This document shows positions 7,996 through 61,593 of a stretch of DNA of 64,000 bases, in pieces; within the stretch, counting starts at the first letter, position 1; the number at the start of each line of letters is the position of its first letter. The notes under the pieces are model-generated. The model saw only the letters and a program-made list of their open reading frames with translations. It did no database searches and was not told the DNA's origin. This stretch comes from Escherichia phage SP27, in the sequence record LC494302.1. The stretch is one strand, 5' to 3'. The translations under genes were made by a program, and so were the position numbers.

Positions 7996-8172
7996 ATGAC
8001 ACATGAAGAATGGATAGAGTCACTAAAATATAAACATGATCATTTTGGATTTGGTATACGCCAAGGCCATTATGATGTTTTGAACGATAAAAAAACGTTC
8101 GAATCATTGGTTTTGGACGAAGATTCCAACCACTGGTTCATCTACGAGCTTGCTATTAGAGATAAAAAATAG
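7996..8172 (+). CDS. MTHEEW-family small protein
   Basis: Tracked ORF trimmed to MTHEEWIESL...; start context conserved with 8515. Confidence 0.65.
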   Translation: MTHEEWIESLKYKHDHFGFGIRQGHYDVLNDKKTFESLVLDEDSNHWFIYELAIRDKK

Positions 8173-8177
8173 TAAGA

Positions 8178-8513
<336 letters not shown>

Positions 8514-9395: not shown

Positions 9396-9497
<102 letters not shown>

Positions 9498-9502
9498 AAA
9501 CC

Positions 9503-9663
9503 ATGACGCATGAAGAATGGATGAATGACATTAATTTTAGATATGCAGGTTTCGGTAACTGGAGAAAGTATCATTGGGAAATCATGTCAGACCCAGCAGA
9601 ATACGATAAACTTATAAACCATGAAGCGTATCCGTGGTTCTTTATTGAAATAATGGTACGAAC

Positions 9664-9667
<4 letters not shown>
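9503..9667 (+). CDS. MTHEEW-family small protein (54 aa)
   Basis: Own translation MTHEEWMNDINFRYAGFGNW...PWFFIEIMVRT. Confidence 0.6.
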
Positions 9668-9829
<162 letters not shown>

Positions 9830-9837
9830 AAAAAAAG

Positions 9838-10247
<410 letters not shown>

Positions 10248-12550: not shown

Positions 12551-12562
12551 TATCTTACTTCT

Positions 12563-12652
<90 letters not shown>

Positions 12653-33192: not shown

Positions 33193-33364
33193 TAATATTC
33201 GTGTTATGCAGCATCCCTACTTACAAATCTTTGATGTGCAGCAGTATATGGAAGGTGATGACCCAAGAACCTATGGTCGTAAGTATGATTACTTCACTGT
33301 AAAGCAGTGTAAAAATATTAACGAAGTACGACAATTAGTTCAAGAACTTCAAAACAAAGGTTGA
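33173..33364 (+). CDS. hypothetical protein
   Basis: Tracked GTG ORF trimmed to ATG 33173 behind AAGGA; stop TGA lies in the TTGAC of the next cassette. Confidence 0.5.
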   Translation: MLIYQSDNIRVMQHPYLQIFDVQQYMEGDDPRTYGRKYDYFTVKQCKNINEVRQLVQELQNKG

Positions 33365-33390
33365 CTTCGGTCAGCCTTTTTTGTTATAAT
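33359..33390 (+). promoter_or_regulatory. fused terminator/early-promoter cassette (-35 inside hairpin)
   Basis: GGTTGAC-TTCG-GTCAGCC, T6, then TATAAT 18 nt after TTGACT. Confidence 0.7.
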
Positions 33391-33418
33391 TCTCTTAATA
33401 AATTAGAGGATTTTAATT

Positions 33419-33859
33419 ATGTATGTATATCGTTTTGAACTTAAATTTAGTTACATTGAACCTAACTTAGATCCTGCACGAACTGTAGGTCCGTTTGCAC
33501 GGTATTCAACCAGATACAGTACTAAAAATGGATTTGACCGTTTGCTTATGACTACACCTTCTCAATTCCAACCTGAACCAACTGAGGATGGGATCTATTC
33601 AATCAAAAGTGGATGGGTATTTGGCTGTCAAAGTTTGAAAGATTTGTTCAGATTCTTCACTATGGACTTGGGTAAATTGCATCGTGCTGGGTTTGCTATA
33701 TCTGTATATGAAGTTCCAGACCACCATGTAGACATTGGTCGTAATCAGGTTCAGTACTATTGCGGTAGTGCTAAATTAGTTCGTATCATGTCAGTTAAGG
33801 AAGCAAAGGATGAGTTCCGACAAAGTAAAAGAGAAACACATGAGGTAATATATGGATAA
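33419..33859 (+). CDS. hypothetical protein
   Basis: 146 aa, AGAGGA SD. Confidence 0.65.
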   Translation: MYVYRFELKFSYIEPNLDPARTVGPFARYSTRYSTKNGFDRLLMTTPSQFQPEPTEDGIYSIKSGWVFGCQSLKDLFRFFTMDLGKLHRAGFAISVYEVPDHHVDIGRNQVQYYCGSAKLVRIMSVKEAKDEFRQSKRETHEVIYG

Positions 33860-34196
33860 AACTCAAATAGAATTAAAGAAATTTGTTTCATTCTATCTTC
33901 CTGATGACCCACGTAATTCACAAAAAGATATTGAATATTATAATATCCTATCTAAACAGTTAATGAGAAAGTTTCAACAGTGTTTAACTATATTCAATAC
34001 AGATGGAAGACGTAGATACCGAATCGTTTCAATGAATGATGAAAACGCAAATTTCTTTGATTACGATGTAGTTTTTAGAGCATATAATGATGATCGTATA
34101 AAATTAAATTATGATCAAATTATACTTGACCTGAATGTTATATGTGTTATAATCACTCACGTAGCCGAACTTAATGGTTTTAAAGAATGGTATTGA
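33852..34196 (+). CDS. hypothetical protein
   Basis: 114 aa, GAGG SD, 8-nt overlap. Confidence 0.6.
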   Translation: MDKTQIELKKFVSFYLPDDPRNSQKDIEYYNILSKQLMRKFQQCLTIFNTDGRRRYRIVSMNDENANFFDYDVVFRAYNDDRIKLNYDQIILDLNVICVIITHVAELNGFKEWY

Positions 34197-34210
34197 ATAG
34201 AGGATAACAT

Positions 34211-34477
34211 ATGAAGCTTAAATTACAATATAATGGATTTACTTTACGTAATGATACTGAATTTATTAATCGTTCTCCTGGTGCTGAACTGTTTTTACGA
34301 GAGATGAACATTCCTTTCATCATTACTACAGTGGGCGACCGTGAAGTTCTACAATATGCAGAGCATCCGATTATTGATGTTCCTTGGTACTCTGAGCATA
34401 TGTACATGGATATGGCACGTCGCTACAACTGTAAGTTCGTAGTTGAAGGTGATAAAATTACAGTCGAATTTAAATAA
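34211..34477 (+). CDS. hypothetical protein
   Basis: 88 aa, AGAGGA SD. Confidence 0.6.
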   Translation: MKLKLQYNGFTLRNDTEFINRSPGAELFLREMNIPFIITTVGDREVLQYAEHPIIDVPWYSEHMYMDMARRYNCKFVVEGDKITVEFK

Positions 34478-34489
34478 GGTAAATTAAAA

Positions 34490-34783
34490 ATGATCAGTAC
34501 TTCAGTTAATGAAAGCATCGTCGCTGACGTAGAAATGGTTAAAGAATGTGCAGATGAAACTCTTCGTGATATGTACATTAATGATTTAATTACTGAATAC
34601 GGTAGTCGTGGTGTACACGAATTTATTCGTTTAAGTGGAGAGTTGATGAAAAATCGAATTCGTATGAAGCTTAACGTACATCCAAAAGCATGGGCATTTA
34701 CATTAAAATACGCAGAAGATATTGTTAATTTGCGTCGAACTGAAGTATATGAACGTTTGCACAATGGTATGTTAGATAAATGA
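34490..34783 (+). CDS. hypothetical protein
   Basis: 97 aa, AAGG SD; antisense ORF 34423..34764 judged spurious. Confidence 0.6.
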   Translation: MISTSVNESIVADVEMVKECADETLRDMYINDLITEYGSRGVHEFIRLSGELMKNRIRMKLNVHPKAWAFTLKYAEDIVNLRRTEVYERLHNGMLDK

Positions 34784-34792
34784 TTGTAAAAT

Positions 34793-34819
34793 AGGAATTC
34801 TTAAATGAATTCCTTTTTG
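34793..34819 (+). terminator. intrinsic terminator
   Basis: AGGAATTC-TTAAAT-GAATTCCT then T5. Confidence 0.65.
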
Positions 34820-34835
34820 TTTATAAGGTATAGTA

Positions 34836-35057
34836 ATGAAATATATAGTACTTGTACTGATATTATTCAGTACTGTTGTAAGTGCTAAACAAAAAGAATA
34901 TGTTAAATGTATAAATTATGAAGAGAAATATGTTGAAACATATAAAAAAAGTATAATTAAAAACGTTTCGATTACTAACAGAGCAACAATCATTGTACTT
35001 AAAAATGGGTTAATTATGCTATATAAACCACACGTTAAATGTGAAATTATTAATTGA
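34836..35057 (+). CDS. small secreted protein
   Basis: Signal peptide ...STVVSA-KQKE. Confidence 0.6.
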   Translation: MKYIVLVLILFSTVVSAKQKEYVKCINYEEKYVETYKKSIIKNVSITNRATIIVLKNGLIMLYKPHVKCEIIN

Positions 35058-35064
35058 GGAAATT

Positions 35065-35637
35065 ATGAATCGTAAAGGTCGTTTTAAAGTATCAAAAAAG
35101 AACAAAAGTTCTAGGTTTAAACCTATTGTTTTAACAGTTAAATCTAACAAAGATTTAACTGCACTTAGTAAAAAGATAATTTCATCTAAGATTGAAGTAT
35201 CATACGTAAATTCATTAAAATATATGAATGTCAAACCACTGGACCAACTCATTTCACTTATATTTGAACGTAATGATTTTGAGATATCAGTAGATGATTA
35301 TAGAGCCTATAATGCTGGTTTCATTAATGTTACTTGTAATAAAAAACTAACTGAGTTGGAAAATTTGTCATGTATAATAAATCTAGATAAAGGTGTTGTG
35401 AAGTACCATTTTGTACATTTCACTAATATCAATAATGGAATGGGTGTACAATCCAGACCTATAGTGCCTACGTGTGATGTTACTAAATTAGCAAAGCTCA
35501 ATGATGAAGAATATTTTCAAGAAAGCATTGTAACTGAGCATTTAGATGATATAATAGCTACTTACAAAGAATGCATATGGGTGTTGAATGCTATAAAACC
35601 TAAATTGTGTTTAATGAATATTGTTCGTGATTTATGA
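35065..35637 (+). CDS. FQxST-motif family protein
   Basis: Trimmed to ATG 35065 behind TGAGGAA; motif NDEEYFQESIVTEH. Confidence 0.7.
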   Translation: MNRKGRFKVSKKNKSSRFKPIVLTVKSNKDLTALSKKIISSKIEVSYVNSLKYMNVKPLDQLISLIFERNDFEISVDDYRAYNAGFINVTCNKKLTELENLSCIINLDKGVVKYHFVHFTNINNGMGVQSRPIVPTCDVTKLAKLNDEEYFQESIVTEHLDDIIATYKECIWVLNAIKPKLCLMNIVRDL

Positions 35638-35650
35638 ATGGGGAATCGTA

Positions 35651-36094
35651 ATGAGTTGGGTAAATGTTAATAGTATTGAACTTAACGAACAAGATATTTT
35701 TGCATTTGTAAATTTAACTAATAACACAGTACTAAAAGGGCGTTTGTTCAGTGCTAGTGATGGGTACAAATGGATCTCTTTGATGGATGATAGTGGTGTG
35801 ATTTATAATGTAATGCAATTACCCCAATGGGTATATAGTAACACTGCTGACGATGTTCTTACCGCAGTTATGCGTGAGTTTGAAAAACTCCCAGGTGGTG
35901 ATATCAAAAACAAAGTTTTTAATGCAGAACGTAAAAATTATACAGCACAGCAGTTGGAATCCGTTGCCATTGCTGCTTATCAAGCTGCTATTAAGAAGCC
36001 AGAGTGCGTTATTCTTAAGTATGTACCAGACTTAAAACTTACGTTGGAAGACATGGATGCATTCATTTTTACATCTGAACTTGATCAGTACTAA
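35651..36094 (+). CDS. hypothetical protein
   Basis: Trimmed to ATG 35651 (MSWVNVNS...). Confidence 0.65.
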   Translation: MSWVNVNSIELNEQDIFAFVNLTNNTVLKGRLFSASDGYKWISLMDDSGVIYNVMQLPQWVYSNTADDVLTAVMREFEKLPGGDIKNKVFNAERKNYTAQQLESVAIAAYQAAIKKPECVILKYVPDLKLTLEDMDAFIFTSELDQY

Positions 36095-36102
36095 TTTAAC
36101 TT

Positions 36103-36131
36103 TGGGACAACCATTCTTATTATGATATAAT
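36103..36131 (+). promoter_or_regulatory. sigma70-like promoter with extended -10
   Basis: TGGGAC-17 nt-TATAAT preceded by TGA. Confidence 0.55.
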
Positions 36132-36210
36132 GTTTTATGTCATTCGATATAAATGACAAACGGAACTATAAATATTATAGTAAAATTTATCTCTTATAGG
36201 AGTTATAAAA

Positions 36211-36594
36211 ATGGTTGATAAATGGAATAAGAAAGATCCATCACATGATGTTGATATTTCTGGTCTAGACAATGCACATAAGCACAAGTATCTAGATTCA
36301 CTAGGTCTTCTAAAACCAGACCAAAGTCTTGCACATGATCGTCCATCCCGTGAAAAAGCATTTAGCCTAGAATCACTAGGTCATGAGCTTAATCGTGTGT
36401 TTGAGGATCACCCAATCTATGTACGTGATATTATCGAGAAACTTAAAGTAACTCCTAAAGAGCACTTTAAAGCAACTGTACACTCTGCATTCCGTGCATT
36501 ACATGAATCTCTAAAGAAAACTCACAATCTTCGTAAAATTCATGATGAAATCGTGAATGCAATCGAAAGTGAAAAACATAAGTTCAAGAAGTAA
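36211..36594 (+). CDS. hypothetical protein (paralog of N-part of 36840)
   Basis: 127 aa; KYLDSLGLLKPDQ and ...IIEKLKVTPKEHFKATV align with 36840. Confidence 0.65.
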   Translation: MVDKWNKKDPSHDVDISGLDNAHKHKYLDSLGLLKPDQSLAHDRPSREKAFSLESLGHELNRVFEDHPIYVRDIIEKLKVTPKEHFKATVHSAFRALHESLKKTHNLRKIHDEIVNAIESEKHKFKK

Positions 36595-36600
36595 TAAAAA

Positions 36601-36633
36601 GGGTTGACTAAGGTCAGCCCTTTGTTGTATCAT
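36601..36633 (+). promoter_or_regulatory. fused terminator/early-promoter cassette
   Basis: GGGTTGAC-TAAG-GTCAGCCC, TTTGTTG, TATCAT 18 nt after TTGACT. Confidence 0.65.
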
Positions 36634-36662
36634 AACTTCTCAATATAACTGAGGTATCATAT

Positions 36663-36776
36663 ATGCAAGGTTTAAAATTTGTAGTTGCTGCACTCATCGC
36701 CGCAGTACTGGTTGGTGGTGTATTCTATGTAGTGGATCAAAAAGTAAATCCACCTGCACAAGAACAATCTAAGTAA
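36663..36776 (+). CDS. 37-aa single-TM peptide
   Basis: GAGG SD; own translation MQGLKFVVAALIAAVLVGGVFYVVDQKVNPPAQEQSK. Confidence 0.5.
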   Translation: MQGLKFVVAALIAAVLVGGVFYVVDQKVNPPAQEQSK

Positions 36777-36784
36777 CAAAATAA

Positions 36785-36822
36785 GGTTGACTTCGGTCAG
36801 CCTTTTCTTTATACTATAAATA
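36785..36822 (+). promoter_or_regulatory. fused terminator/early-promoter cassette plus TATAAATA late-type box
   Basis: GGTTGAC-TTCG-GTCAGCC, TTGACT-17-TATACT, then TATAAATA at 36815-36822. Confidence 0.6.
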
Positions 36823-36839
36823 TAGACATAGAGAAAAAA

Positions 36840-38117
36840 ATGAAATCTATGGAGAGAAATCAAATGCCAAGTAATTTTACTGATAAAAATGGTGGTAACA
36901 TGGCTGGTCACTCTGATAAATGGAGTGAACGCAACCGCCGTCCAAATAGTTATCAAGCAGGTCAAGGTTCACGTGGATCACGTAACCAAGGAACTGGTCT
37001 AGCTGGTAAAGCAAACGCAGAAGCAGGTGAAGTTAAGAGTACTGAGAACATGACTGAGCTAGAAAAGCTACGTTATGTTAATTCATTGGGACTTCTTAAT
37101 GCTACACAAAAACAACGCCTAGCTGATATGGAACGTGAAGAAAAAGAAAAGTCTGCTCCTGCGAAAGAAGAACCAAAACAAGAAGCACCAAAGGCGGTTA
37201 ACCCTGTCAAAGAACTGTCTGATAAGTTAGGTAAGATTTTTGCTAATAAACCACAACTTATCCAAGGTATTGTGAAAGAATTGCAATCTGTACCTAAAGA
37301 AGAATTAAAAGTCAAAGCACAAGCTGTGCTTGATGCAATGAGTGGAAATACCAGTACTGAACCAACTGAAGTATTCAGTACTATAATGCGTGCACTTGAA
37401 GGTACGCAACAAGGTGATGTGCCTGCACAAGAGGAAGTAAGTCTTGAAAGCGTACTTAAAACATTTGATAGTATTGGTAAAGAAGACCGTGCTAATGCTC
37501 AACAAGTTAAGAATGTACTAGCTAAGTTAGAAAACCGTCTGGAAGGTAAAGACGATAAGATTAAATTAGTATCTGATGCAGTTAACGATGCACTTAAATC
37601 TTATGTACAAGGTGAAAAGAGTCGTTTTGTAACTGCAATGGATGCTGCATTCAATACTATGAAAAAGTATGAAGCTGATCATGGTGAGAAGGTTACACGA
37701 GATGGTTATCTGATGCGTGATGATGAAGAAGGTGCAGTAGAACAGAACGATGTTCATTCAGACGAAGAAATTGATGACATGGAAGCTGAACTGTCACAAG
37801 ACCGCCAAATGACTGAAAAATCCCATAACGAACTACAGAAATTAATGCAATGGGTTGCAGATGTTGGTGAAAAAGCTGGTGCTGATAAGAAGAGTATAAA
37901 TCGAAATCTTAGTTGGATTAAAGATAAAGTTGGTAACAACGCTCGTAAACTACAAAAAGCGTGGACTGATGTAGTGAATGGTGCTGTTGATATTGATGTT
38001 GAATCCGGTGAGGCATATGATTATGCATTGACTACACTTGATGACTCTTTCCGTGATTACGAAAATGGAAATGTAACTCCTTGGGAAAAGGACATCATGA
38101 GCAAATACGGTAAATGA
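36840..38117 (+). CDS. large charged hypothetical protein (start may be 36864)
   Basis: 425 aa, K/E/D-rich; N-part paralogous to 36211..36594; antisense ORFs judged spurious. Confidence 0.7.
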   Translation: MKSMERNQMPSNFTDKNGGNMAGHSDKWSERNRRPNSYQAGQGSRGSRNQGTGLAGKANAEAGEVKSTENMTELEKLRYVNSLGLLNATQKQRLADMEREEKEKSAPAKEEPKQEAPKAVNPVKELSDKLGKIFANKPQLIQGIVKELQSVPKEELKVKAQAVLDAMSGNTSTEPTEVFSTIMRALEGTQQGDVPAQEEVSLESVLKTFDSIGKEDRANAQQVKNVLAKLENRLEGKDDKIKLVSDAVNDALKSYVQGEKSRFVTAMDAAFNTMKKYEADHGEKVTRDGYLMRDDEEGAVEQNDVHSDEEIDDMEAELSQDRQMTEKSHNELQKLMQWVADVGEKAGADKKSINRNLSWIKDKVGNNARKLQKAWTDVVNGAVDIDVESGEAYDYALTTLDDSFRDYENGNVTPWEKDIMSKYGK

Positions 38118-38127
38118 TAAAACAAAA

Positions 38128-38159
38128 GGTTGACTTCGGTCAGCCTTTTTTTGTAAATA
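38128..38159 (+). promoter_or_regulatory. fused terminator/promoter cassette (weak -10, TAAATA)
   Basis: GGTTGAC-TTCG-GTCAGCC, T7, then GTAAATAC. Confidence 0.55.
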
Positions 38160-38188
38160 CAAAAGAGGAATTAAGAAGAGGGATTACA

Positions 38189-38440
38189 ATGAAAAAATAT
38201 ATTATATTTGGAATTGTATTATTTTCCAGTACTGCTTATGGTGCAGATTATCATTGCTCCGTAGCAAGGCAGGATTTCAGAAATGGGGAGTTCTATACTA
38301 CCTCATACACAAAAGGAATAATACACGACACCGACAGAACTATTGGATTTAATGCGTTTGACAACAAAGATTCATATACTTCAGGTATACTATCTGAGCG
38401 TAAGACTGATGTAATGGGAATAGAAAAAGAGTTTCGGTGA
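38189..38440 (+). CDS. small secreted protein
   Basis: Trimmed to ATG 38189 behind AGAGGGA; signal peptide ...SSTAYG-ADYH. Confidence 0.6.
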   Translation: MKKYIIFGIVLFSSTAYGADYHCSVARQDFRNGEFYTTSYTKGIIHDTDRTIGFNAFDNKDSYTSGILSERKTDVMGIEKEFR

Positions 38441-38450
38441 TTCCGTGGCA

Positions 38451-38774
38451 ATGTGTAATGACATTGAAAGTACTAAAACAATTTATTATAATAATGAACG
38501 TAACTATCGTTTTCATAATTTAACCACAAATAAAAGTTTACTATTTTACAATTGTAAAGAAGTAATACTCCCATCAGACAATAGCTGTACTCCAACTAAT
38601 CAACCCCCAGCACAATGTAATACTCCCTCTGAACCTGATAAAAATAAAAAAGACAAAGATAAAGATAAAAAAGAAGACAAAAAACCTTTAAAAGATAAAA
38701 AGAAAGATAAAAAACCTAATCCGTTTAAAAATAATAAACCAGCACAACCCGATATGACGTGTAAAATAAAATAA
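38451..38774 (+). CDS. hypothetical protein with K/D-rich low-complexity tail
   Basis: ATG 38451; no clear SD; PDKNKKDKDKDKKEDKKPLKDKKKDKK tract. Confidence 0.45.
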   Translation: MCNDIESTKTIYYNNERNYRFHNLTTNKSLLFYNCKEVILPSDNSCTPTNQPPAQCNTPSEPDKNKKDKDKDKKEDKKPLKDKKKDKKPNPFKNNKPAQPDMTCKIK

Positions 38775-38783
38775 GGATATATA

Positions 38784-39203
38784 ATGAAAAAGATTTTTTT
38801 AAGTATTATTTTAGTACTTTTTAGTTTTAATGTATATGCAGCAGATGCTAAACAGGTTGCTAATACAGTAAAAGATGTTATAGTAGACAATGCTCCTACC
38901 TTAGAGGAAATTGGGGTAAAAACTTGTGATATAGTAATATATAATTTAGTTAATGATGAACGAGTTATGTTGAATACGTATGAACAAGTAGTCCCATTGG
39001 TTGAATCTGGTGATGCTTTTAGCTTTACATATAAAGTTAAATTAACAGGAGGGGTTGAAGTTAATCTTGACATTGATACCGCTTCAGTACTAAAAGATAA
39101 ACTAGGATATGTGTTCAATCGTATTCGTGAAGAAGGTCATCTTAAGTATGTTTATGAAAGTAAAATACTAAAACGTGCAATAGTTATAGAAAACTGTAAA
39201 TGA
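38784..39203 (+). CDS. secreted protein
   Basis: AAGGA SD; signal peptide ...SFNVYA-ADAK; antisense 172-aa ORF judged spurious. Confidence 0.65.
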   Translation: MKKIFLSIILVLFSFNVYAADAKQVANTVKDVIVDNAPTLEEIGVKTCDIVIYNLVNDERVMLNTYEQVVPLVESGDAFSFTYKVKLTGGVEVNLDIDTASVLKDKLGYVFNRIREEGHLKYVYESKILKRAIVIENCK

Positions 39204-39212
39204 TAATAAAAG

Positions 39213-39244
39213 GGTTGACTTCGGTCAGCCTTTTTTGTTATGAT
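39213..39244 (+). promoter_or_regulatory. fused terminator/early-promoter cassette
   Basis: GGTTGAC-TTCG-GTCAGCC, T6, TATGAT 18 nt after TTGACT. Confidence 0.65.
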
Positions 39245-39272
39245 GTTGATATTAACTACAGAGGATAAAGTA

Positions 39273-39914
39273 ATGACTAAGCAAGAAATATTCAAAACTT
39301 TAATTGACATTTTGCGTCCATCAAAAACTCGTTGTGCGATGGAGTTTGATATTCCTTATGCTGAACGCGTAATCTTTCCACAAGTTAAAGCTGCTGGACT
39401 TACTTTGCTTGGAATGGGGATGTACTCTGTAGTAGTTGAACATAAAAACTATCCTGGACGAGCATTTAAAGTAACCACTTCACGCTGGGATGGTTTTCGT
39501 GCTTATGCAAAGTACTGCATTGAAAACGCAGGAACCAAGTTTCTTCCAGTGATCTACAGTGCCAACGAACAAGGAAACTTTGGATGGTATGAGATGGACA
39601 AGTACTATCCTATAATTAAACAAAAAAATAATTATGATGACTTTGTTAGTACTAAAATTGGAGATTTATATTCTTATGCACATGCTGGTCAGTACGCTAC
39701 TTCAGTGAATGATATGCGTGGAAATTCTGAAGAGATTGCTATTGCGACGGTCGCTGCTAACATCATGAAAGAGTTTCACGGGCGTTTTGTACCAGACATT
39801 CATTCAAGTAATGTAATGATGGATAAAGATGGGAATGTATTCATTACTGATCCTCTTTCGTGTGATGTGCGTAGAGAAATACCAATTACTGAAGAAGATC
39901 CAGTTTTTTATTGA
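39273..39914 (+). CDS. protein-kinase-like fold protein (APH/LPS-kinase type)
   Basis: Trimmed to ATG 39273 (downstream of cassette -10); RAFKV lysine, catalytic DIHSSNVMMDKDGNVFITDP resembles D-L-H-x-G-N ... I-D. Confidence 0.6.
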   Translation: MTKQEIFKTLIDILRPSKTRCAMEFDIPYAERVIFPQVKAAGLTLLGMGMYSVVVEHKNYPGRAFKVTTSRWDGFRAYAKYCIENAGTKFLPVIYSANEQGNFGWYEMDKYYPIIKQKNNYDDFVSTKIGDLYSYAHAGQYATSVNDMRGNSEEIAIATVAANIMKEFHGRFVPDIHSSNVMMDKDGNVFITDPLSCDVRREIPITEEDPVFY

Positions 39915-39939
39915 CAGAACTGATGTTCTGATGTATTCT
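39911..39939 (+). promoter_or_regulatory. sigma70-like promoter
   Basis: TTGACA-17 nt-TATTCT overlapping stop of 39273..39914. Confidence 0.5.
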
Positions 39940-39975
39940 TAATAAACCATAAAAATTGCGGTAAAGGATAAAATC

Positions 39976-40257
39976 ATGCGTTCATTTGAAAACTTAATAG
40001 GTAAGCATCTTTTATCTGAAATTGATGCAGACGTTAAAGAATTATCCAAATCAAAAAGTTACATTCATTTGGATGAACTATTTGTTAAGTACGGTGAGAT
40101 TGGTTTTAAGTCATTATTTGTTTTTACTATGAAAGTACATAGTTTAAAGTACTTCGATTTGAGTGCTAAAGATGGTGAACCGAATCTATATTACATGTAT
40201 TACCTTAAGAACAAAGATGAAGCTAATACATTACTCTCTGAATATATATTGGGGTAA
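39976..40257 (+). CDS. hypothetical protein
   Basis: 93 aa, AAGGA SD. Confidence 0.6.
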   Translation: MRSFENLIGKHLLSEIDADVKELSKSKSYIHLDELFVKYGEIGFKSLFVFTMKVHSLKYFDLSAKDGEPNLYYMYYLKNKDEANTLLSEYILG

Positions 40258-40259
40258 AA

Positions 40260-40598
40260 ATGGAACAATATTTTGAATTAATAAACAAAGTATCATTTTA
40301 TGTAGTATCTTTGGTTTGGGTGTATTATATGTTTTGCTACATTATTGCATTCTTCCGATACACTACTTTATATGAACGTATCTACTATGATGCCCCAATT
40401 TCATTCTTGATGTTTTGTGCATGTACGTGGGGAATATTAGAAGTACTGATATGTGGGTATAGTACTGATGAATTAAATCTGGTATCGGTCTTGACTGGGT
40501 TTTCATTTGTTGTTATGATAGCTGCCGTTCCAGTATGGTTGTTCTTTGGACTAGTTCATCGCATTGATATATGGCGTTCTAATATCCCTGAAAAGTAA
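40260..40598 (+). CDS. small multi-pass membrane protein, family TM-R.N.P (member 1)
   Basis: 112 aa, ~3-4 TM; C-terminus RSNIPEK. Confidence 0.7.
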   Translation: MEQYFELINKVSFYVVSLVWVYYMFCYIIAFFRYTTLYERIYYDAPISFLMFCACTWGILEVLICGYSTDELNLVSVLTGFSFVVMIAAVPVWLFFGLVHRIDIWRSNIPEK

Positions 40599-40607
40599 GG
40601 ATTGGTA

Positions 40608-40949
40608 ATGATTTATTACACTAACATGTTTGCCTATGCTGTTGCTTGCATTTACATTGTTTACTTCTTATTTGGTGGAGTACTGTGCTTCTTTAAGTAC
40701 AAAACGTTGTTCAACCGAATGTACCCAAATCATCCAATTGTAGTTGTACTTTTGATTCTTTCAGTTTCTCAAATAATCGTTGAAACTACAATGGGTATCA
40801 GTAGTGTACATTATAGTTTTGGTACTATAGTAATTATTACTATGCTTATTGCATACATTTTAGTACTTGGATATGGTATCTTTGGTAATATTGGTATGAA
40901 AATGTATCATCGAATTAAAACATTACGTGATAATCTACCGGAGCGTTGA
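40608..40949 (+). CDS. small multi-pass membrane protein, same family (member 2)
   Basis: ATG 40608 behind AAGGAT; C-terminus RDNLPER. Confidence 0.7.
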   Translation: MIYYTNMFAYAVACIYIVYFLFGGVLCFFKYKTLFNRMYPNHPIVVVLLILSVSQIIVETTMGISSVHYSFGTIVIITMLIAYILVLGYGIFGNIGMKMYHRIKTLRDNLPER

Positions 40950-40950
40950 T

Positions 40951-41295
40951 ATGTATAATTTGAACCTAATCTCATATATTATAACAACACTGTTTACATT
41001 CTATGCCTTTGTTGGTATAATCCTACTGTACTTTAAATTTTATAAAGTGTTTAACCGTTTCTATCCTTCAATGGAGAATGAGTTTTTCTTTGTGTTGTAC
41101 GTATGTTACACATTCATGGCTACATGTTTCACTGTAGTCGATGGTGTCATCGGCATTAAAACTGCTGCACCAAATGGTAGTACGCTGGTTGCATTTATTC
41201 TTACCGGATTCCTTGCAACTTATATTGCCTTCATTGCAACATGGTCAGTGGTTGAATTTCTCTTGCGACTACGAAAGAATATGCCGAATCGATAG
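40951..41295 (+). CDS. small multi-pass membrane protein, same family (member 3)
   Basis: ATG 40951 behind GGAG; C-terminus RKNMPNR. Confidence 0.7.
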   Translation: MYNLNLISYIITTLFTFYAFVGIILLYFKFYKVFNRFYPSMENEFFFVLYVCYTFMATCFTVVDGVIGIKTAAPNGSTLVAFILTGFLATYIAFIATWSVVEFLLRLRKNMPNR

Positions 41296-41304
41296 GAGAC
41301 ATAT

Positions 41305-41559
41305 ATGTTTGCATTGCGTAACAAAAACACTAAAGAAATATTATGTTTAGATACCGTATGGGATTGTGCGGGATCAACTACAGTTCTTGAAGAAGGAACT
41401 GGATATTGCGTGTTTGTTGTACATGATAGGAATGAACTCGAATTATTACTTGCTGAGTTCAATGCTGGTGGTAATCCTAACAGTACTGAATACCCTGAGA
41501 TTATCAATCCAGCACCACCAGGCTCTTATGAAATTCTACAACTGTGGGAGTTGAAGTAA
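41305..41559 (+). CDS. hypothetical protein (paralog of 43431)
   Basis: 84 aa, AGGAGA SD; MFALRNKN.. versus MYALYNKE.. Confidence 0.6.
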   Translation: MFALRNKNTKEILCLDTVWDCAGSTTVLEEGTGYCVFVVHDRNELELLLAEFNAGGNPNSTEYPEIINPAPPGSYEILQLWELK

Positions 41560-41939
41560 TGCGTCAAATGCACAAAGTAACCGAGCTAAACAAGCGTCTG
41601 GTTAAACAATCAATGTTCGAGGATAAAGAGTCTTATTATAACTTTAAACGTGCAGTAGAGGCTGCTATCCACATTCAGAAGCTTAAAGAACGTGGTTGTA
41701 TTATTCTGGAAAATGGTTCGGAAGTTGTAACGGATGACTTTAGTGTAGCGTTTGATGTTTCACCTGACGGGACGCTATCAATGCCCCGCTTAGGAACTGG
41801 AAACATGACTGTTTGGGTTGGCTTCACTATGGGGAATGTACCTGGTACTGTGTACGTAGATGATGCGGAATTGAAAGACAGTTTCAAAAACTTATCGTAC
41901 CTTGAACCACAATACGCACATGAAATGAATTTATTTTGA
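41559..41939 (+). CDS. hypothetical protein
   Basis: Trimmed to ATG 41559 (TAATG coupling, GGGAG SD). Confidence 0.6.
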   Translation: MRQMHKVTELNKRLVKQSMFEDKESYYNFKRAVEAAIHIQKLKERGCIILENGSEVVTDDFSVAFDVSPDGTLSMPRLGTGNMTVWVGFTMGNVPGTVYVDDAELKDSFKNLSYLEPQYAHEMNLF

Positions 41940-41940
41940 G

Positions 41941-41998
41941 TTGACAAACACATTCAGTACTGTATAATGTTTATCAAGGGGATGAACTTCTCATCCCC
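41941..41998 (+). promoter_or_regulatory. early promoter with CAGTACTG dyad followed by stem-loop
   Basis: TTGACA-aacacatTCAGTACTG-TATAAT, then GGGGATGA-ACTTC-TCATCCCC. Confidence 0.6.
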
Positions 41999-42015
41999 AC
42001 AATCGAGGAATTGTC

Positions 42016-42570
42016 ATGATTACTTTTAAGAAAACTGCTAACCACATCCATGAAATCTACATTAACGGTCACAAAGCTGGCCTTCTTCGTTTACTCGCCC
42101 ATCACCCTGATGCTACCGTATCTGATAATGAACCTAAAGATTGGCGTGTCTTTTTCTTTGGAAAGTACAGTGATTTTCAAGTATCAAACCTGAAGAACAT
42201 TCGTTCAGTATGCACGTTAACTGAAATTAAAGAAAAGTTAGCACAAGCATTGAAAACTAATCCAGATGGTGTTCTTCCACCTGATAACTTTGTAGAGAAA
42301 GGTTATGCCTTAGCTCATTTCAAAGATGGTACTATTCAATCTATCAGTACTGAATATGAATATCATTGGACTGAGTACTTCACTTATGGTTCGAGTAATA
42401 CATTGATGGATTCACGTAGTAAATTGGAAGAAGTACTGACTCGTATGAATGAACGCGAGCGTCAGTTATATGACAAACCAGAAATGTGGAGTTCAACTTA
42501 CATTGACCGTATTGACTATGTTATTATGACTCCAATCTTTGACACTGCTTACTATGATTCTTTGAAATAA
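42016..42570 (+). CDS. hypothetical protein
   Basis: 184 aa, GAGGAA SD. Confidence 0.65.
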   Translation: MITFKKTANHIHEIYINGHKAGLLRLLAHHPDATVSDNEPKDWRVFFFGKYSDFQVSNLKNIRSVCTLTEIKEKLAQALKTNPDGVLPPDNFVEKGYALAHFKDGTIQSISTEYEYHWTEYFTYGSSNTLMDSRSKLEEVLTRMNERERQLYDKPEMWSSTYIDRIDYVIMTPIFDTAYYDSLK

Positions 42571-42581
42571 GGATAACTTAT

Positions 42582-42758
42582 ATGAAACTACGTACTCGTA
42601 ATCGACTGATGGATGCACTGTACCATGAACAGCTTTCACTGAATGAAGTGAAGCGTCAGTTAATGTACACATATCAGTTTCCCGCTCGCATTGCAAAACA
42701 ACGTGCTAAAGAATTGCTGAAAGAAGCAATAGAGTACTGGGAATCTGATTCGTACTAA
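42582..42758 (+). CDS. 58-aa helical basic protein (possible DNA binder)
   Basis: AAGGATA SD; own translation MKLRTRNRLMDALYHEQLSLNEVKRQL...; function speculative. Confidence 0.5.
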   Translation: MKLRTRNRLMDALYHEQLSLNEVKRQLMYTYQFPARIAKQRAKELLKEAIEYWESDSY

Positions 42759-42797
42759 TATTACGTGATATGTCACGTTAATTAAGTGAGGCGATAA

Positions 42798-43049
42798 ATG
42801 AAAATATTATTAGTTCTAATACTACTAATAGTTTTACCATTTACTTTAGTATCCCCTGGACTTGCATGGAATGTATTTGTGTACTTAGTATGTACTATTG
42901 TAGTAAATGGTATCTTGTTCTTAGTTCTATTCATAAATGGAATAGGACACGGTGGAGGATGGACCAGTACTGCTGATATCGTACATAAAACCACTATGTC
43001 TTTATTTGTAATGTGGAATTTGTTCTGGACTTGGTTTGTGTTCTTCTAA
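42798..43049 (+). CDS. small membrane protein
   Basis: 83 aa, 3 TM helices, GTGAGG SD. Confidence 0.6.
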   Translation: MKILLVLILLIVLPFTLVSPGLAWNVFVYLVCTIVVNGILFLVLFINGIGHGGGWTSTADIVHKTTMSLFVMWNLFWTWFVFF

Positions 43050-43057
43050 TTAAAAAT

Positions 43058-43429
43058 ATGAATATAGATTTGAAAGGTGCAACCCGAACTGTTATCCTCA
43101 TTGGGGAATACGCTATCAAGATTCCAACCTTCAAAAGCTGGAAGTTATTCCTAACTGGAATGATAGCTAACCTCAATGAACGTTCATGGATGCAGTACTC
43201 CAATCGTAGTGATAGTGGTATCTGCCCTACTTTGTGGTCATCATGTACAGGACTAGTAACTGTACAGAAACGTTGTAAGCCAGTTCAACATAGGGGTTTA
43301 TTTTGGGTGGAGTTGTGTGCTTTAGCATTGAATTCAGAGTTAAGTACTGACTTCTTTTATTCAGATGCGAAGCCAGAAAACTTTGGTTATCTGAATGGTA
43401 AGTTAGTTAAACTTGATTATGGAGATTAA
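43058..43429 (+). CDS. minimal protein-kinase-like protein (123 aa)
   Basis: Trimmed to ATG 43058; YAIKIP lysine, catalytic DAKPENFG, DYG (DFG-like) at extreme C-terminus. Confidence 0.6.
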   Translation: MNIDLKGATRTVILIGEYAIKIPTFKSWKLFLTGMIANLNERSWMQYSNRSDSGICPTLWSSCTGLVTVQKRCKPVQHRGLFWVELCALALNSELSTDFFYSDAKPENFGYLNGKLVKLDYGD

Positions 43430-43430
43430 G

Positions 43431-43700
43431 ATGTACGCACTGTATAATAAAGAAAAGAAACGATTTGCTAAGGTTGAAATTTCGATTGATACCTTTGATA
43501 TGTTGGAGTACTGTATTGTGACGGACCTATATGCTAACTTGTATTACGTTCTTGATGACGTATCAGTACTGCAACGATTGCTTGAGAATTCCAAAAGTCA
43601 ATGCCAGGGCATCCATGATGGTTCATCTTATGAAACACCTGAGTGTTCCTACGGCTATCTGGACGGGTATGAGATTGTGAAGTTGGGGATTGTTGAATAA
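43431..43700 (+). CDS. hypothetical protein (paralog of 41305)
   Basis: Trimmed to ATG 43431 behind TGGAGA. Confidence 0.55.
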   Translation: MYALYNKEKKRFAKVEISIDTFDMLEYCIVTDLYANLYYVLDDVSVLQRLLENSKSQCQGIHDGSSYETPECSYGYLDGYEIVKLGIVE

Positions 43701-43706
43701 AGAAAA

Positions 43707-43739
43707 GGGTTGACTACGGTCAGCCCTTTTTGCTATAAT
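43707..43739 (+). promoter_or_regulatory. fused terminator/early-promoter cassette
   Basis: GGGTTGAC-TACG-GTCAGCCC, T5, TATAAT 18 nt after TTGACT. Confidence 0.7.
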
Positions 43740-43767
43740 CATTTCATCGAAACGAGAGGATGAATAC

Positions 43768-44283
43768 ATGACACGCATTAACTTAGTACACGTTAAAGAA
43801 CTTGCTGACCAACATCTGATGGCTGAATATCGTGAACTCCCACGTGTATTTGGTGCTGTACAAAAACACGTTCAAGCACGTAAGCGTGTACGTGATTTCA
43901 AAATTAACAGTACTTATCTGTTAGGTTCAGGTCATGTGACATTCTTTTACGACAAGTTGCTGTACTTACAGAAGCGTCATATCGATATTGTTAACGAATG
44001 TTTGCGTCGTGGTATGAAGATTCAAAACACTGAAGTAAACGACATTAGCGGCTTCCCTGCTGAGTTTTGTAATGACTACGTACCAACGGAGTCAGAGATT
44101 AAAATGTCTCGTGATCGTTTGATTGAGAAGCTCCAGATGAAGCCTACGTGGTATAAGTTTACTGATGTTGAATGTCCACAGTACGTTAAAGATATGCAGA
44201 ACGTAAGTAGTAAGAACGAATCTAGTACTGATATGTTCGACGAAATTGAAGAACAAATCAAAGATGAAATGAATAATTATTAA
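43768..44283 (+). CDS. denV: pyrimidine dimer DNA glycosylase (T4 endonuclease V homolog)
   Basis: [30 protein letters not shown]...KRVRDFKI...[10 protein letters not shown] nearly identical to my recollection of T4 EndoV; extra acidic ~35-aa tail. Confidence 0.93.
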
Positions 44284-44289
44284 AGGAAA

Positions 44290-44310
44290 GGGTTGACTTC
44301 GGTTACACAA
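44290..44310 (+). promoter_or_regulatory. degenerate copy of the hairpin/promoter cassette
   Basis: GGGTTGACTTCGGTTAC: left arm and loop kept, right arm and T-run lost. Confidence 0.35.
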
Positions 44311-44321
44311 AGGAACATAAC

Positions 44322-44516
44322 ATGTTATTAGTATATTCAACGCGTTTCTGGATTTCTTTTATTGTACTATCGCTAATCGGCTTCGGTTTGAGTATACTCT
44401 TTTCGTGGGATGAATTGGGTACATGGTATTATGAAGTCCCGTGGTACATGAAGATAGCTCCTTGTTATGCGGCATTGTTCGTGTCATTCCTTATTGTTGT
44501 CTTCAGCGAGGATTAG
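44322..44516 (+). CDS. small membrane protein
   Basis: 64 aa; PWYMKI segment resembles 46911 member (PWYMKV). Confidence 0.55.
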   Translation: MLLVYSTRFWISFIVLSLIGFGLSILFSWDELGTWYYEVPWYMKIAPCYAALFVSFLIVVFSED

Positions 44517-44567
44517 TTGATGTAGTATGTGCTACACCAAAGTATTTGGATATTTTAGATATAAACA

Positions 44568-44596
44568 TTGACACCTGTTATATCTTTCTGTATTAT
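44568..44596 (+). promoter_or_regulatory. sigma70-like early promoter
   Basis: TTGACA-17 nt-TATTAT. Confidence 0.6.
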
Positions 44597-44622
44597 GTAC
44601 ATCACCAAATGAGGAATACAAC

Positions 44623-44982
44623 ATGGCATCTTTAAGTGAAATCGCAGAATACAACCCACTAACAATCTCAACAATTCAACGTACAAAAACTTTTTATTTC
44701 CGTCCTGCTGATGGATGGAAACGTGGAATGAATGGTGACTATCGAGTACTGGAAGATTCACTAATCGAGCGTATCAACTCTGAACTACAGAAGTATGAAG
44801 GTGTTAAAGTTGTGCGTTCAACTTCTCGTTATTTTGAGTACTACATTGAGTCTTCAACTGTAAATGAAAACTCATCATTATCGGTGGACAACACTGATAT
44901 TCTTCGTAATGCAGTTGGTATGTTATGCAACATTGCAGAAGAAATGGGATTAACTATTAGTACTATGAGTGAGTTGGAATAA
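44623..44982 (+). CDS. hypothetical protein
   Basis: 119 aa, GAGGAA SD. Confidence 0.65.
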   Translation: MASLSEIAEYNPLTISTIQRTKTFYFRPADGWKRGMNGDYRVLEDSLIERINSELQKYEGVKVVRSTSRYFEYYIESSTVNENSSLSVDNTDILRNAVGMLCNIAEEMGLTISTMSELE

Positions 44983-44988
44983 CATAAA

Positions 44989-45021
44989 GGGTTGACTTCG
45001 GTCAGCCCTTTTTGCTATAAT
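44989..45021 (+). promoter_or_regulatory. fused terminator/early-promoter cassette
   Basis: GGGTTGAC-TTCG-GTCAGCCC, T5, TATAAT; almost identical to 43707 copy. Confidence 0.7.
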
Positions 45022-45049
45022 TATTTCATCAACTGAAGAGGGTAAAGAA

Positions 45050-45820
45050 ATGACCAGAGAAGCACGCAGCATTCAAATTCAGAAAAACTTCAACTCCATG
45101 ATGGTTGCTCTTGAGTGTTTGCTCGATGATAGCAGTACTGTAAAAAGTATGGTTGTCAGTGGTGCTCCTGGTGTTGGTAAGACTTACACCTTGTCCCAAC
45201 GTCTCCAGAAGGCTCATGACGCAGCAGAATGGAACGTAGCTACTATCAGTGGTAAGATGACTACACTGGCTCTGTACGAAGTTCTGTACAAGAATCGTCA
45301 CAGCACCAACGTGTTAGTACTGGATGATATGGACAGCATCTTTGATTCTGAAGACGGTATGAACCTGCTCAAAGCTGTTTTGGATAGTGGTAAGCGTACT
45401 GTATCTTATATGACTAGCTCTAAGTACTTGAGCACTAACGGCATTCCTAATAGCTTTGATTTTAATGGTCGCATCGTATTCATTACTAACAAAGATTTAG
45501 CGTTAGATGCTAAAGCTAAAACTAAAATGTCTGCTCATTATGCTGCTCTTATGTCTCGTTCTGTGTACGTGGATTTACAGATTCAGACTAAAAGTGATAT
45601 CATGATTCATATTGAAAATGTAATGACTAAGACTAATATCCTTGCATCTAAAGGTGTTAACAGTAACGGTAGTAAAGCAATTCTGAACTGGATGTTAAAA
45701 CATGAAGATAATCTTCGTGCACCATCCCTGCGTATGCCTTTGTTGATTTCAGCAGTATATAACAACAATCCGTATGATTGGGAAGAACAATGTGAAAACT
45801 TGTTCCTTGAGAAAATCTAA
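45050..45820 (+). CDS. P-loop AAA-type ATPase
   Basis: Walker A GAPGVGKT, Walker B VLVLDDMD; 256 aa. Confidence 0.8.
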   Translation: MTREARSIQIQKNFNSMMVALECLLDDSSTVKSMVVSGAPGVGKTYTLSQRLQKAHDAAEWNVATISGKMTTLALYEVLYKNRHSTNVLVLDDMDSIFDSEDGMNLLKAVLDSGKRTVSYMTSSKYLSTNGIPNSFDFNGRIVFITNKDLALDAKAKTKMSAHYAALMSRSVYVDLQIQTKSDIMIHIENVMTKTNILASKGVNSNGSKAILNWMLKHEDNLRAPSLRMPLLISAVYNNNPYDWEEQCENLFLEKI

Positions 45821-48668: not shown

Positions 48669-48675
48669 TAAAAAA

Positions 48676-48697
48676 TCCAGTACTATTAAGTACTGGA
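48676..48697 (-). terminator. hairpin acting as minus-strand terminator (A6 on plus = T6 on minus)
   Basis: TCCAGTACT-ATTA-AGTACTGGA; T-run only on minus-strand side. Confidence 0.45.
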
Positions 48698-48710
48698 TGT
48701 ATAAGGAGTT

Positions 48711-52207: not shown

Positions 52208-52217
52208 AAATTCCTCC

Positions 52218-61585: not shown

Positions 61586-61593
61586 ATTCCCTC

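Follow-up and report, generated by a model that had tools for sequence, protein, structure and literature searches.

Along 11.7 kb of the stretch of Escherichia phage SP27 DNA analysed here (sequence record LC494302.1, 64,000 nucleotides, hereafter the window), one short inverted repeat returns at the boundary between one gene and the next. This raises the question of what these repeats are: whether they end transcription, begin it or do both, and whether the genes that they flank are exchanged as modules. A first-pass annotation had taken them for fused terminator/promoter cassettes resembling the promoter-early-stem-loops (PeSLs) of T4-type phages. We consider it probable, at roughly 80%, that they are PeSL-type composite regulatory cassettes of the kind described in phages nt-1 and KVP40, here located in an Asteriusvirus, in its early region rich in ORFans. 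Their promoter and terminator activity and their mode of recombination are what we infer from the sequence and its comparison with relatives.

By megablast, the region is that of an Asteriusvirus jumbo coliphage, with E9.1, phAPEC6, 121Q, PBECO4 and others at 97-98% identity and a second tier of relatives at 87-91%. From position 1 to about 49 kb the + strand is occupied by dense small open reading frames (ORFs), six tRNAs and about 32 strong TTGAC-type sigma70 promoters. An early region of similar pattern has been proposed for the related phage CBB (PMC5259590), by analogy with which this part of the window appears to be patterned as an early region. The promoters carrying the hairpin form a distinct class in the window, with TTGACT instead of TTGACA as -35 box and a spacer of 18 nt compared to 16-17 nt; the predicted folds of the promoter segments reach -14 to -21 for the cassettes, whereas most other promoters range from about -3 to -10 and three further ones reach -10 to -12. 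The genes of the cassette-flanked modules are clade-restricted and mostly without Pfam hits.

A search of the window for TTGACNNNNGTCAGCC, with up to one mismatch allowed, returned seven matches, each exact and each on the + strand, at 33361, 36604, 36787, 38130, 39215, 43710 and 44992, while dinucleotide shuffles yield 0.14 matches on average and never more than one. The seven intact TTGAC-N4-GTCAGCC copies between 33.3 and 45.0 kb reported by the first-pass annotation are thus real, its coordinates marking the GG or GGG just upstream of TTGAC. In 121Q, seven of the eight strict-motif matches found genome-wide lie inside this region, a count that comes from IMG/VR pattern scans, which stood in for the whole-genome sequence of 121Q, yield per-genome counts and contig positions, and leave out the 3'-arm variants GTCAACC and GTCGGCC. 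In both phages the repeats are therefore concentrated in a hyperplastic, ORFan-rich region, as are PeSLs.

PeSLs were defined in phages RB49 and phi1 as a sigma70 early promoter with an AT-rich upstream part and a stem-loop, placed after the stop codon of one gene and before the ATG of the following one (Arbiol et al. 2010, PMC2839356), and the copies in the window show each of these parts in a constant order: A-rich run, GG(G)TTGAC, a 4-nt loop, GTCAGCC(C) and T5-7, always in the orientation of the genes. The A-rich run, directly 5' of TTGAC and with the consensus AAAAAAAGGG, supplies the AT-rich upstream part, in which the stop of the preceding gene is usually found in PeSLs. The hairpin has a stem of 8-13 bp, with TTGAC in its 5' arm and a single G-U pair in all seven copies (3' arm GTCAGCC), and the loop is TTCG in five copies, TAAG at 36604 and TACG at 43710, as the annotation had it. 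The folds range from -12.4 to -19.7 kcal/mol (z = -4.0 to -5.9), with none of 200 shuffles as stable. Together with the T-run, and with the pair covariation and tetraloop enrichment given below, they represent the stable stem-loop of a PeSL, of the type that overlaps the -35 box. Rfam covariance models at gathering score gave no match on the cassettes, neither in the window, where only the six tRNAs were returned, nor at three related loci.

Sequence evidence for a sigma70-like early promoter is present in six of the seven copies, 38130 being the one that lacks it. The spacer from TTGACT to the -10 hexamer, taken as 18 nt in the first-pass annotation, has this length in five copies and 17 nt at 36787; a TATAAT hexamer, claimed for all copies, is found in three of the seven, the others having variant hexamers or, at 38130, none that is usable. 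TGn precedes four of the six -10 hexamers. At the 3' end, all seven copies have a GAGG-type Shine-Dalgarno sequence and an ATG at 24-29 nt after the -10 position, again as in PeSLs. The upstream genes' stop codons are found 0-15 nt before TTGAC, one of them within it, and TTGAC and ATG are 58-59 nt apart in six copies, compared to 53 nt in the remaining one, so that the cassette is a fixed-length block of about 70 nt reaching from stop codon to start codon.

Cassette 1 (33350..33390) folds at 33356-33379 between its A-tract and T6 (loop TTCG, -14.0 kcal/mol), with TTGACT at 33361-33366, TGT and the -10 hexamer TATAAT at 33385-33390, and the next ATG at 33419; the stop codon of the upstream gene (TGA, 33362-33364) lies inside the -35 box, as had been noticed. 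Cassette 2 (36593..36633; hairpin 36598-36623, GGGTTGAC-TAAG-GTCAGCCC, -17.3 kcal/mol; -35 at 36604-36609; -10 TATCAT at 36628-36633) precedes the ATG of a 37-aa ORF at 36663, and cassette 3 (36776..36815; hairpin 36783-36804, loop TTCG, -12.4 kcal/mol; -35 at 36787-36792; spacer 17 nt; -10 TATACT at 36810-36815) precedes an ORF of 425 aa starting at 36840, annotated in relatives as a virion structural protein. Cassette 4 (38119..38159; hairpin 38124-38149, loop TTCG, T7, -14.3 kcal/mol) has TTGACT at 38130-38135, TAAATA, unusable as a -10, at 38154-38159 and the next ATG at 38189; its sequence suggests a terminator-like element only.

Cassette 5 (39204..39244; hairpin 39208-39235, loop TTCG, -14.8 kcal/mol; -35 at 39215-39220; TGT and -10 TATGAT at 39239-39244) is followed by the ATG at 39273 of a gene annotated in relatives as a protein kinase. 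Here the third G pairs with T and not C, a correction to the first-pass annotation. Cassette 6 (43699..43739) has the most stable hairpin (43702-43731, GGGTTGAC-TACG-GTCAGCCC, -19.7 kcal/mol), its -35 at 43710-43715, TGC and the -10 TATAAT at 43734-43739, and the leader CATTTCATCGAAACGAGAGG in front of the endonuclease V/pyrimidine-dimer glycosylase gene (ATG 43768). Cassette 7 (44981..45021; hairpin 44986-45011, GGGTTGAC-TTCG-GTCAGCCC, -18.3 kcal/mol; -35 at 44992-44997; TGC and -10 TATAAT at 45016-45021; leader TATTTCATCAACTGAAGAGGG) precedes a gene for an AAA-type ATPase (ATG 45050). Cassettes 5, 6 and 7 share an extended 78-nt repeat from stop codon to ATG (repeat family D5; 39200-39277, 43695-43772 and 44977-45054, + strand) with 68-82% identity, which is likely to represent the length of homology available for recombination.

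Whether the conserved element is an RNA hairpin or a DNA site, and whether the promoter boxes are genuine, was assessed on a pooled set of 167 distinct occurrences of GGTTGAC-N4-GTC[AG][AG]CC with a downstream T-run, collected from two IMG/VR pattern scans, the six relatives aligned below and nt-1. The base before GG and the one after CC covary (G-C 121, A-T 31, T-A 4, G-T 10, one mismatch; Fisher p = 8e-26), and among the 92 loops other than TTCG, 23 are GNRA and six UNCG, compared to expectations of about 3% and 1.6%. A near-palindrome such as GGTTGAC/GTCAGCC, a 7-bp inverted repeat around a 4-bp centre with endonuclease genes nearby, could also be a protein-binding site on DNA, as a repressor operator or a nuclease or recombinase target. 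This reading, which we rejected as very improbable, is contradicted by the strand asymmetry and by the RNA-type loop and pair statistics. The imperfect palindrome pairs only as + strand RNA, since it contains a G-U pair and the only stem variants found in the six relatives, GTCAACC and GTCGGCC, exchange A and G in the 3' arm opposite U, which keeps the pairing in the + strand RNA and leaves C-A mismatches on the other strand. Moreover, the flanking pair covaries between G-C, A-T and T-A, RNA-stabilising UNCG and GNRA loops are enriched, the T-run always comes after the stem, and all copies have the orientation of the genes. The wobble form GTCAGCC accounts for 148 of 170 T-run-filtered instances.

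The pooled set is equally informative about the promoter, because the scan patterns left the -10 unconstrained. A -10-like hexamer, defined by at least four of six matches with A2 and T6, occurs at a spacer of 17-18 nt in 152 of the 167 instances (91%; n = 69 at spacer 17, n = 81 at spacer 18), and 107 of the instances with a -10 carry TGn, whereas the same test at other offsets succeeds in 9-27%. A rival reading would make the repeats plain intrinsic terminators with a look-alike promoter, the downstream genes being transcribed by read-through or from other promoters. It draws on the CBB supplement, in which identical hairpins are listed only as terminators (Torf39, 515, 518 and 520), outside the RpoD-like promoters, on the GAP32 record, where a terminator is annotated on a cassette match, on copy 38130 without a -10, and on the frequency of chance -10-like hexamers in AT-rich phage DNA, to which the 9-27% of the control windows testify. 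We regard it as unlikely, considering the placement of the hexamer at exactly 17-18 nt, the frequency of TGn, and the TTGAC that stays invariant in the cassettes of the six relatives while 3' arm and loop vary. A-tract, Shine-Dalgarno sequence and the constant distance of 58-59 nt to the ATG furthermore amount to a complete promoter-leader unit, and PeSLs of the same layout are active as promoters in RB49 and phi1 (PMC2839356). These statistics point to a real hairpin in the coding-strand RNA and a real promoter with its -35 box in the 5' arm, both activities being predicted from sequence. A -35 and -10 are also annotated on a cassette in the record of fHe-Yen9-03, where the -35 is placed at TTCGGT, 10 nt from the -10; this annotation was not relied on.

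The second part of the question, whether cassettes bound exchangeable modules, was addressed by aligning 30-48 kb of the window to UE-S1, E9.1, 121Q, SD-15_S21, ph0011 and fEgEco12, with the junctions checked base by base. Across the 45 genes of this segment, indel endpoints fall on seven of eight cassette junctions compared to six of 36 other junctions (Fisher p = 3e-4). The proposal that synteny breakpoints in relatives coincide with cassettes was thus supported, and indel and replacement endpoints lie in the cassettes between close relatives as they do in PeSLs. The proposal that each flanked unit holds one to three genes did not survive for two of them, as the unit from 33361 to 36604 holds eight genes and that from 39215 to 43710 about 13.

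Four events have both endpoints in cassettes. Cassettes 2 and 3 are the left and right boundaries of a slot (36604-36787) with zero, one or three ORFs: the 37-aa ORF is found in the window, E9.1, 121Q and SD-15, three ORFs in fEgEco12, and none in UE-S1 and ph0011, where a single cassette joins one copy's left flank to the other copy's right flank. Likewise, cassettes 4 and 5 delimit a three-gene module (38130-39215) that is missing in UE-S1 and ph0011, leaving a single chimeric cassette. The slot at 44992 has four contents in four phages: the window has one cassette, while the relatives have 0.24-2.2 kb of differing genes between two cassette copies, namely 2.2 kb in E9.1 (a hypothetical gene, an HNH gene and an endonuclease gene), a different 2.1 kb in 121Q and one 88-aa ORF in SD-15. 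At all three slots (36604/36787, 38130/39215 and 44992), absence of the module leaves exactly one intact chimeric cassette, with no base lost or duplicated.

An eighth copy, described as decayed at 44290 in the first-pass annotation, does retain A-tract, 5' arm and loop (AAAGGGTTGACTTCGGT, 44287..44303, + strand; TTGAC at 44293-44297), its 3' arm, T-run and -10 being replaced by unrelated sequence; it is unfolded (-1.7 kcal/mol, with 169 of 200 shuffles at least as stable). In ph0011 and fEgEco12 an intact cassette directly follows the endonuclease V gene, the segment 44304-44986 of the window is missing, and homology stops after 44303, immediately past the loop, where the 3' arm begins. The half cassette of the window is hence the left junction of an insertion, a junction scar. 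Further insertions in E9.1, fEgEco12 and ph0011 are located exactly at 43701/43708, between the stop codon at 43700 and the cassette at 43710; they consist of an HNH gene in fEgEco12, an HNH gene plus 3.4 kb with a Dam-type methylase in ph0011, and a remnant of about 80 bp in E9.1. The HNH endonuclease gene is free-standing and directly upstream of the endonuclease V cassette in fEgEco12 (L006 14165-14578) and ph0011 (L005 11983-12396), E9.1 (L002 13382-13461) keeps its last 80 bp or so as an annotated 41-aa ORF, and the window has none; this pattern probably reflects gain and loss of a homing-type gene beside the cassette.

Such endonuclease genes lend some weight to a reading in which terminators and promoters are real but passive landmarks, the rearrangements being produced by illegitimate recombination or homing endonucleases and then filtered by selection at regulatory boundaries. 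HNH genes adjoin cassettes (fEgEco12 g570, the similar ORF of ph0011 and the E9.1 remnant), another lies inside the E9.1 insertion at 44992, the junction at 44303 is no clean cassette-to-cassette exchange, and a large part of the region's indels are elsewhere. Still, single intact chimeric cassettes with no gain or loss of bases are the signature of crossing-over within a repeat, and both endpoints would rarely fall in cassettes in four events if the two ends were independent. We therefore judge passive landmarks to be improbable, to about the same degree as plain terminators. A miniature inverted-repeat transposable element or transposon was also considered and set aside, as the regions retrieved have no annotated transposase gene and repeat analysis brought out no further structure, although no search was aimed at terminal inverted repeats or target duplications.

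Several points weigh against the interpretation as PeSL-type cassettes. The junctions entering the Fisher test were classified by hand and in six relatives. Indels away from cassettes, at 34.5/35.0, 42.76/43.05, 44.17/44.61 and 46.0/46.2 kb plus two intragenic ones, account for roughly half of the region's indel loci, so that cassettes would be one route among several. The indel at 46.0/46.2 kb coincides with a tandem paralogue pair (45888-46016 and 46229-46357; 129 nt, 78% identity), where one gene is missing from E9.1 and from fEgEco12; this speaks for unequal recombination of the two paralogues and not for cassettes. Selection could, by any mechanism of origin, favour the survival of indels that end at regulatory boundaries. 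The 18-nt spacer exceeds the optimum by one nucleotide, and the lack of an acceptable -10 at 38130 (TAAATA), which is identical in E9.1, 121Q, SD-15 and fEgEco12, means that not every copy is bifunctional. The dual role claimed by the first-pass annotation is accordingly upheld at the level of sequence and comparison, with the exception of this copy. Finally, a literature search returned no Asteriusvirus transcriptome and no mapped transcript ends or starts.

If the cassettes are PeSLs, the same bases would act twice. In the RNA arriving from upstream, the GC-clamped hairpin of 8-13 bp, mostly capped by C(UUCG)G and followed by U5-7, would serve as intrinsic terminator or attenuator and also as 3'-end stabiliser for the preceding gene or genes. 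As double-stranded DNA, the sequence would be a promoter for host sigma70 RNA polymerase, in which an UP-like A-tract precedes a -35 TTGACT formed by the 5' arm and the first loop base, 3' arm and T-run make up the 17-18 nt spacer, and TGn and the -10 hexamer follow. Transcription would start about 7 nt past the -10 and give a leader of about 22 nt with a GAGG Shine-Dalgarno sequence before the ATG. With terminator and promoter in one unit, each module would be insulated and have its own promoter, and since units of 35-78 bp are direct repeats, homologous recombination, within one genome or between co-infecting relatives, could delete, insert or swap the modules that they flank.

The cassettes also bear on gene annotation. 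The longest-ORF starts at 38114 and 39240 are located upstream of or inside cassettes, and the same starts are annotated in some relatives (E9.1 8114..8440; 121Q gene 205, 9473..10147). The ATGs preceded by Shine-Dalgarno sequences at 38189 and 39273 are likelier starts, so that annotations of the 38114/39240 type probably extend genes across a terminator; cassettes can thus be used to flag start codons called upstream of the hairpin.

Other combinations of promoters and hairpins were observed in the window. A further subclass of promoters, whose spacer is conserved (TTGAC(A/T)..N..CAGTACTGTATAATGT), is found at 9839, 10318, 27273, 31588 and 41941 (+ strand), and its AGTACT motif recurs in terminator-like hairpins on the - strand (48675-48698 and 49822-49844); it may represent a binding site or a separate regulatory class. 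In the segment 14060-14150 (+ strand), the hairpin TAGAAGTTGACTTTTTAACTTCTA contains the -35 of a consensus promoter (TTGACT-18-TATACT), and the terminator-like hairpin GGCTGATTCGATGAATCGGCC with T6 comes directly after it, which would give a very short transcript, possibly a small RNA. The hairpin at 5975-6012 (+ strand; ATACCCAGT-ACTTG-ACTGGGTAT TTTTTTT) contains TTGAC in its loop and 3' arm and would be a different mode of overlap between a -35-like box and a terminator. A promoter at 39911-39939 (+ strand; TTGACA-17-TATTCT), with CAGAAC-TGAT-GTTCTG as a hairpin in its spacer, resembles in sequence another PeSL subclass, and is found where a segment that is replaced in fEgEco12 ends on the right, with alignment resuming at 39962.

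In several jumbo-phage contigs a conserved ACTAACCCAyAGGGTGC stands about 20 nt after strong promoters, some of which are cassettes, in the place of Shine-Dalgarno sequence and ATG (e.g. L016 2020, 3704 and 5709, corresponding to about 145-149 kb of 121Q; L049 8048; L057 1246 and 11286; L058 2159; L007 2072, 4996 and 7176). It sometimes forms convergent inverted pairs about 80 nt apart between facing promoters, and gave no Rfam hit and no tRNA with ARAGORN. It would be a small transcription unit. As it is not present in the window, it forms no part of the findings on the cassettes.

Repeats and genes farther away in the window include the tRNA cluster, with six genes at 9302-12641 (+ strand; Rfam RF00005), of which the weakest, at 9396-9474, barely reaches the gathering score. 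About 11 tandem paralogous genes lie on the - strand at 49850-63000, at intervals of approximately 1.2 kb, and their 5' ends are conserved (repeat families D1/D2; AAGGAGG..ATGTTACCTTTTGC.. in reverse complement, N-terminus MLPF.RM..YGNI); the first gene (49853-51085) has RCC1-like repeat domains according to Pfam. Five copies of ..ATGACACATGAAGAATGGAT (repeat D10, 7735-9683, + strand) and 91-nt repeats at 7925 and 8444 suggest a tandem array of small paralogues that share a conserved start.

Beyond Asteriusvirus, a 51-nt cassette query matched 149 phage records, most of them from phages of Vibrio (51), Escherichia (34), Aeromonas (18), Klebsiella (10), Salmonella (9), Erwinia (8) and Yersinia (4), next to Cronobacter and Serratia phages and four records of a Brochothrix phage (A9; Gram-positive host). 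The strict motif occurs nine times in the genome of RaK2, eight times in 121Q, six times in KVP40 and five times in GAP32. Much of the shared sequence is explained by geometry: a hairpin and U-tract that must fit a 17-18 nt spacer force the -35 into the 5' arm, so that the stem has to be TTGAC/GTCA(A/G), clamped by GGG/CCC. The preference for G, by which the same G-U wobble recurs across phage families, and the shared leaders are not obviously accounted for in this way. The leader motif ATCGAAAC is carried by 25 of the 167 pooled leaders, compared to a background of 0.0014 per 32 nt, and ATCAACT by 13; both are found in the window and in nt-1, and ATCGAAAC also in KVP40. The two alternative leader motifs, in the forms CATCGAAAC and CATCAACT, are common to the RaK2/121Q-like jumbo phages and to the group of KVP40/nt-1 and Aeromonas-65-type Straboviridae.

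This remainder makes common descent or horizontal spread of the cassette possible. RaK2/121Q-like phages, KVP40/nt-1 and Aeromonas-65-type Straboviridae and Brochothrix phage A9 all show the G-U wobble in the cassette. That one regulatory unit is common to these unrelated virulent lineages is a tentative idea that we hold rather doubtful, slightly less so than the rival readings of the cassettes discussed above. A tblastn search with two module proteins (44623-44979 and 38784-39200) matched only Asteriusvirus and one Erwinia jumbo phage, and thus gave no sign of module traffic between families. If a single unit did cross these lineages, the cassette would be a linker of universal use in recombination, through which genes could pass between phage families. 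RNA release 6-12 bp upstream of the -10 would then hand the polymerase from module to module by recycling termination (PMC11347151); the RNA polymerase of E. coli is able to remain DNA-bound once a hairpin has ended transcription, and to initiate anew at the closest promoter (PMC11347151). That the cassette layout might pass polymerase in this manner is speculation by analogy. The wide distribution of a near-identical sequence in any case poses the question of forced convergence, with few free bases, versus horizontal spread. In practical terms, cassettes predict accessory-gene slots in jumbo phages that are candidates for therapy, and provide a ready insulated expression unit of 70 bp for phage engineering.

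Among known systems, the closest are the PeSLs, as the first-pass annotation had suggested, and every PeSL feature that can be assessed by sequence and comparison was found. Its view that the fusion of promoter and stem sets the cassettes apart from PeSLs is not tenable: one of the five PeSL subclasses has a stem-loop overlapping the -35 box (Arbiol et al. 2010, PMC2839356), and in nt-1, too, the -35 is inside the stem-loop of a nearly identical sequence (PMC4122927). In RB49 and phi1, recombination between PeSL copies deletes or inserts ORFans, and promoter and terminator activity as well as mini-circles have been demonstrated by experiment, with one crossover mapped in the loop (PMC2839356), a position similar to the break just 3' of the loop after 44303. 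The cassettes described here differ in being known from sequence, and the stems of RB49 are polyG/polyC and mostly located between -35 and -10 or over the -10.

PeSLs were later extended to T4/PST and KVP40/nt-1 (Comeau, Arbiol & Krisch 2014, PMC4122927), nt-1 having the stem A3-4G3-loop-C3T3-4, the promoter TTGYVH-N17-TAWWAT and degraded "1/2" PeSLs (PMC4122927). The nt-1/KVP40 sequence AAAGGGTTGAC-N4-GTCAGCCCTTTTT... is nearly identical to the cassettes of the window, and the form of the window copies, AAAGG(G)TTGAC-N4-GTCAGCC(C)TTTTT, is also that of nt-1 ORF109/110, 128/129, 129/130 and 364/365. Read directly from the intergenic regions, the elements are AAAAAGGGTTGACAGATGTCAGCCCTTTTTTGTATCAT at ORF109/110 (in a longer reading, Comeau Fig. 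6B, TCAAAAAGGGTTGACAGATGTCAGCCCTTTTTTGTATCAT), AAAAGGGTTGCTTCGGCAGCCCTTTTTTGTTATTCT at ORF128/129 and AAAAGGGTTGACAGTAGTCAGCCCTTTTTTTGTATCAT at ORF364/365. The shared architecture comprises A3-4 G3 [TTGAC/TTGC..-loop-..GTCAG] C3 T3-7, a -10 at 17-18 nt, leader, Shine-Dalgarno sequence and ATG, as well as the leader variants CATCGAAAC.. and CATCAACT.., and in both groups the elements gather in ORFan-rich regions, go together with indels and are accompanied by degraded half copies. The differences are that the cassettes here belong to an Asteriusvirus, a RaK2/121Q-like jumbo myovirus outside Straboviridae, and that their -35 is always TTGACT and their loop mostly UUCG, whereas nt-1 adds TTGC.. 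stems and Mot-box (PmSL) versions.

Other systems share parts of this design. C(UUCG)G hairpins, reportedly noted by Tuerk and colleagues in 1988 in T4 intercistronic regions, are said to act there as RNA stability or termination elements without an embedded promoter; like the cassettes, they would place an extra-stable UUCG loop with a closing C-G pair at the 3' end of a phage transcription unit. The early "uber" promoters of T4 combine an UP-like A-tract, -35, TGn and -10 and are read by unmodified host sigma70 polymerase (Hinton 2010, PMC2988021), but are generally outside terminator hairpins and have GTTTAC, not TTGAC, as -35 consensus. Lambdoid morons are likewise small, autonomously transcribed units inserted between resident genes (PMC1524935); they have no single repeated bounding cassette and a GC content unlike that of the phage, while the modules described here have phage-like composition and boundaries of one sequence. 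A literature search, from which subscription-only papers such as the GAP32 genome paper were excluded, found no description of PeSLs in Asteriusvirus or RaK2-like phages, a clade whose hairpins of this kind have been recorded as terminators only, in the CBB supplement and the GAP32 record. The architecture of the cassette is thus already known from PeSLs, and it is the host clade, the RaK2/121Q-like jumbo phages, that appears to be new, which would extend the PeSL type of genome plasticity, with a regulatory cassette as recombination linker, from T4-like phages to these jumbo phages.

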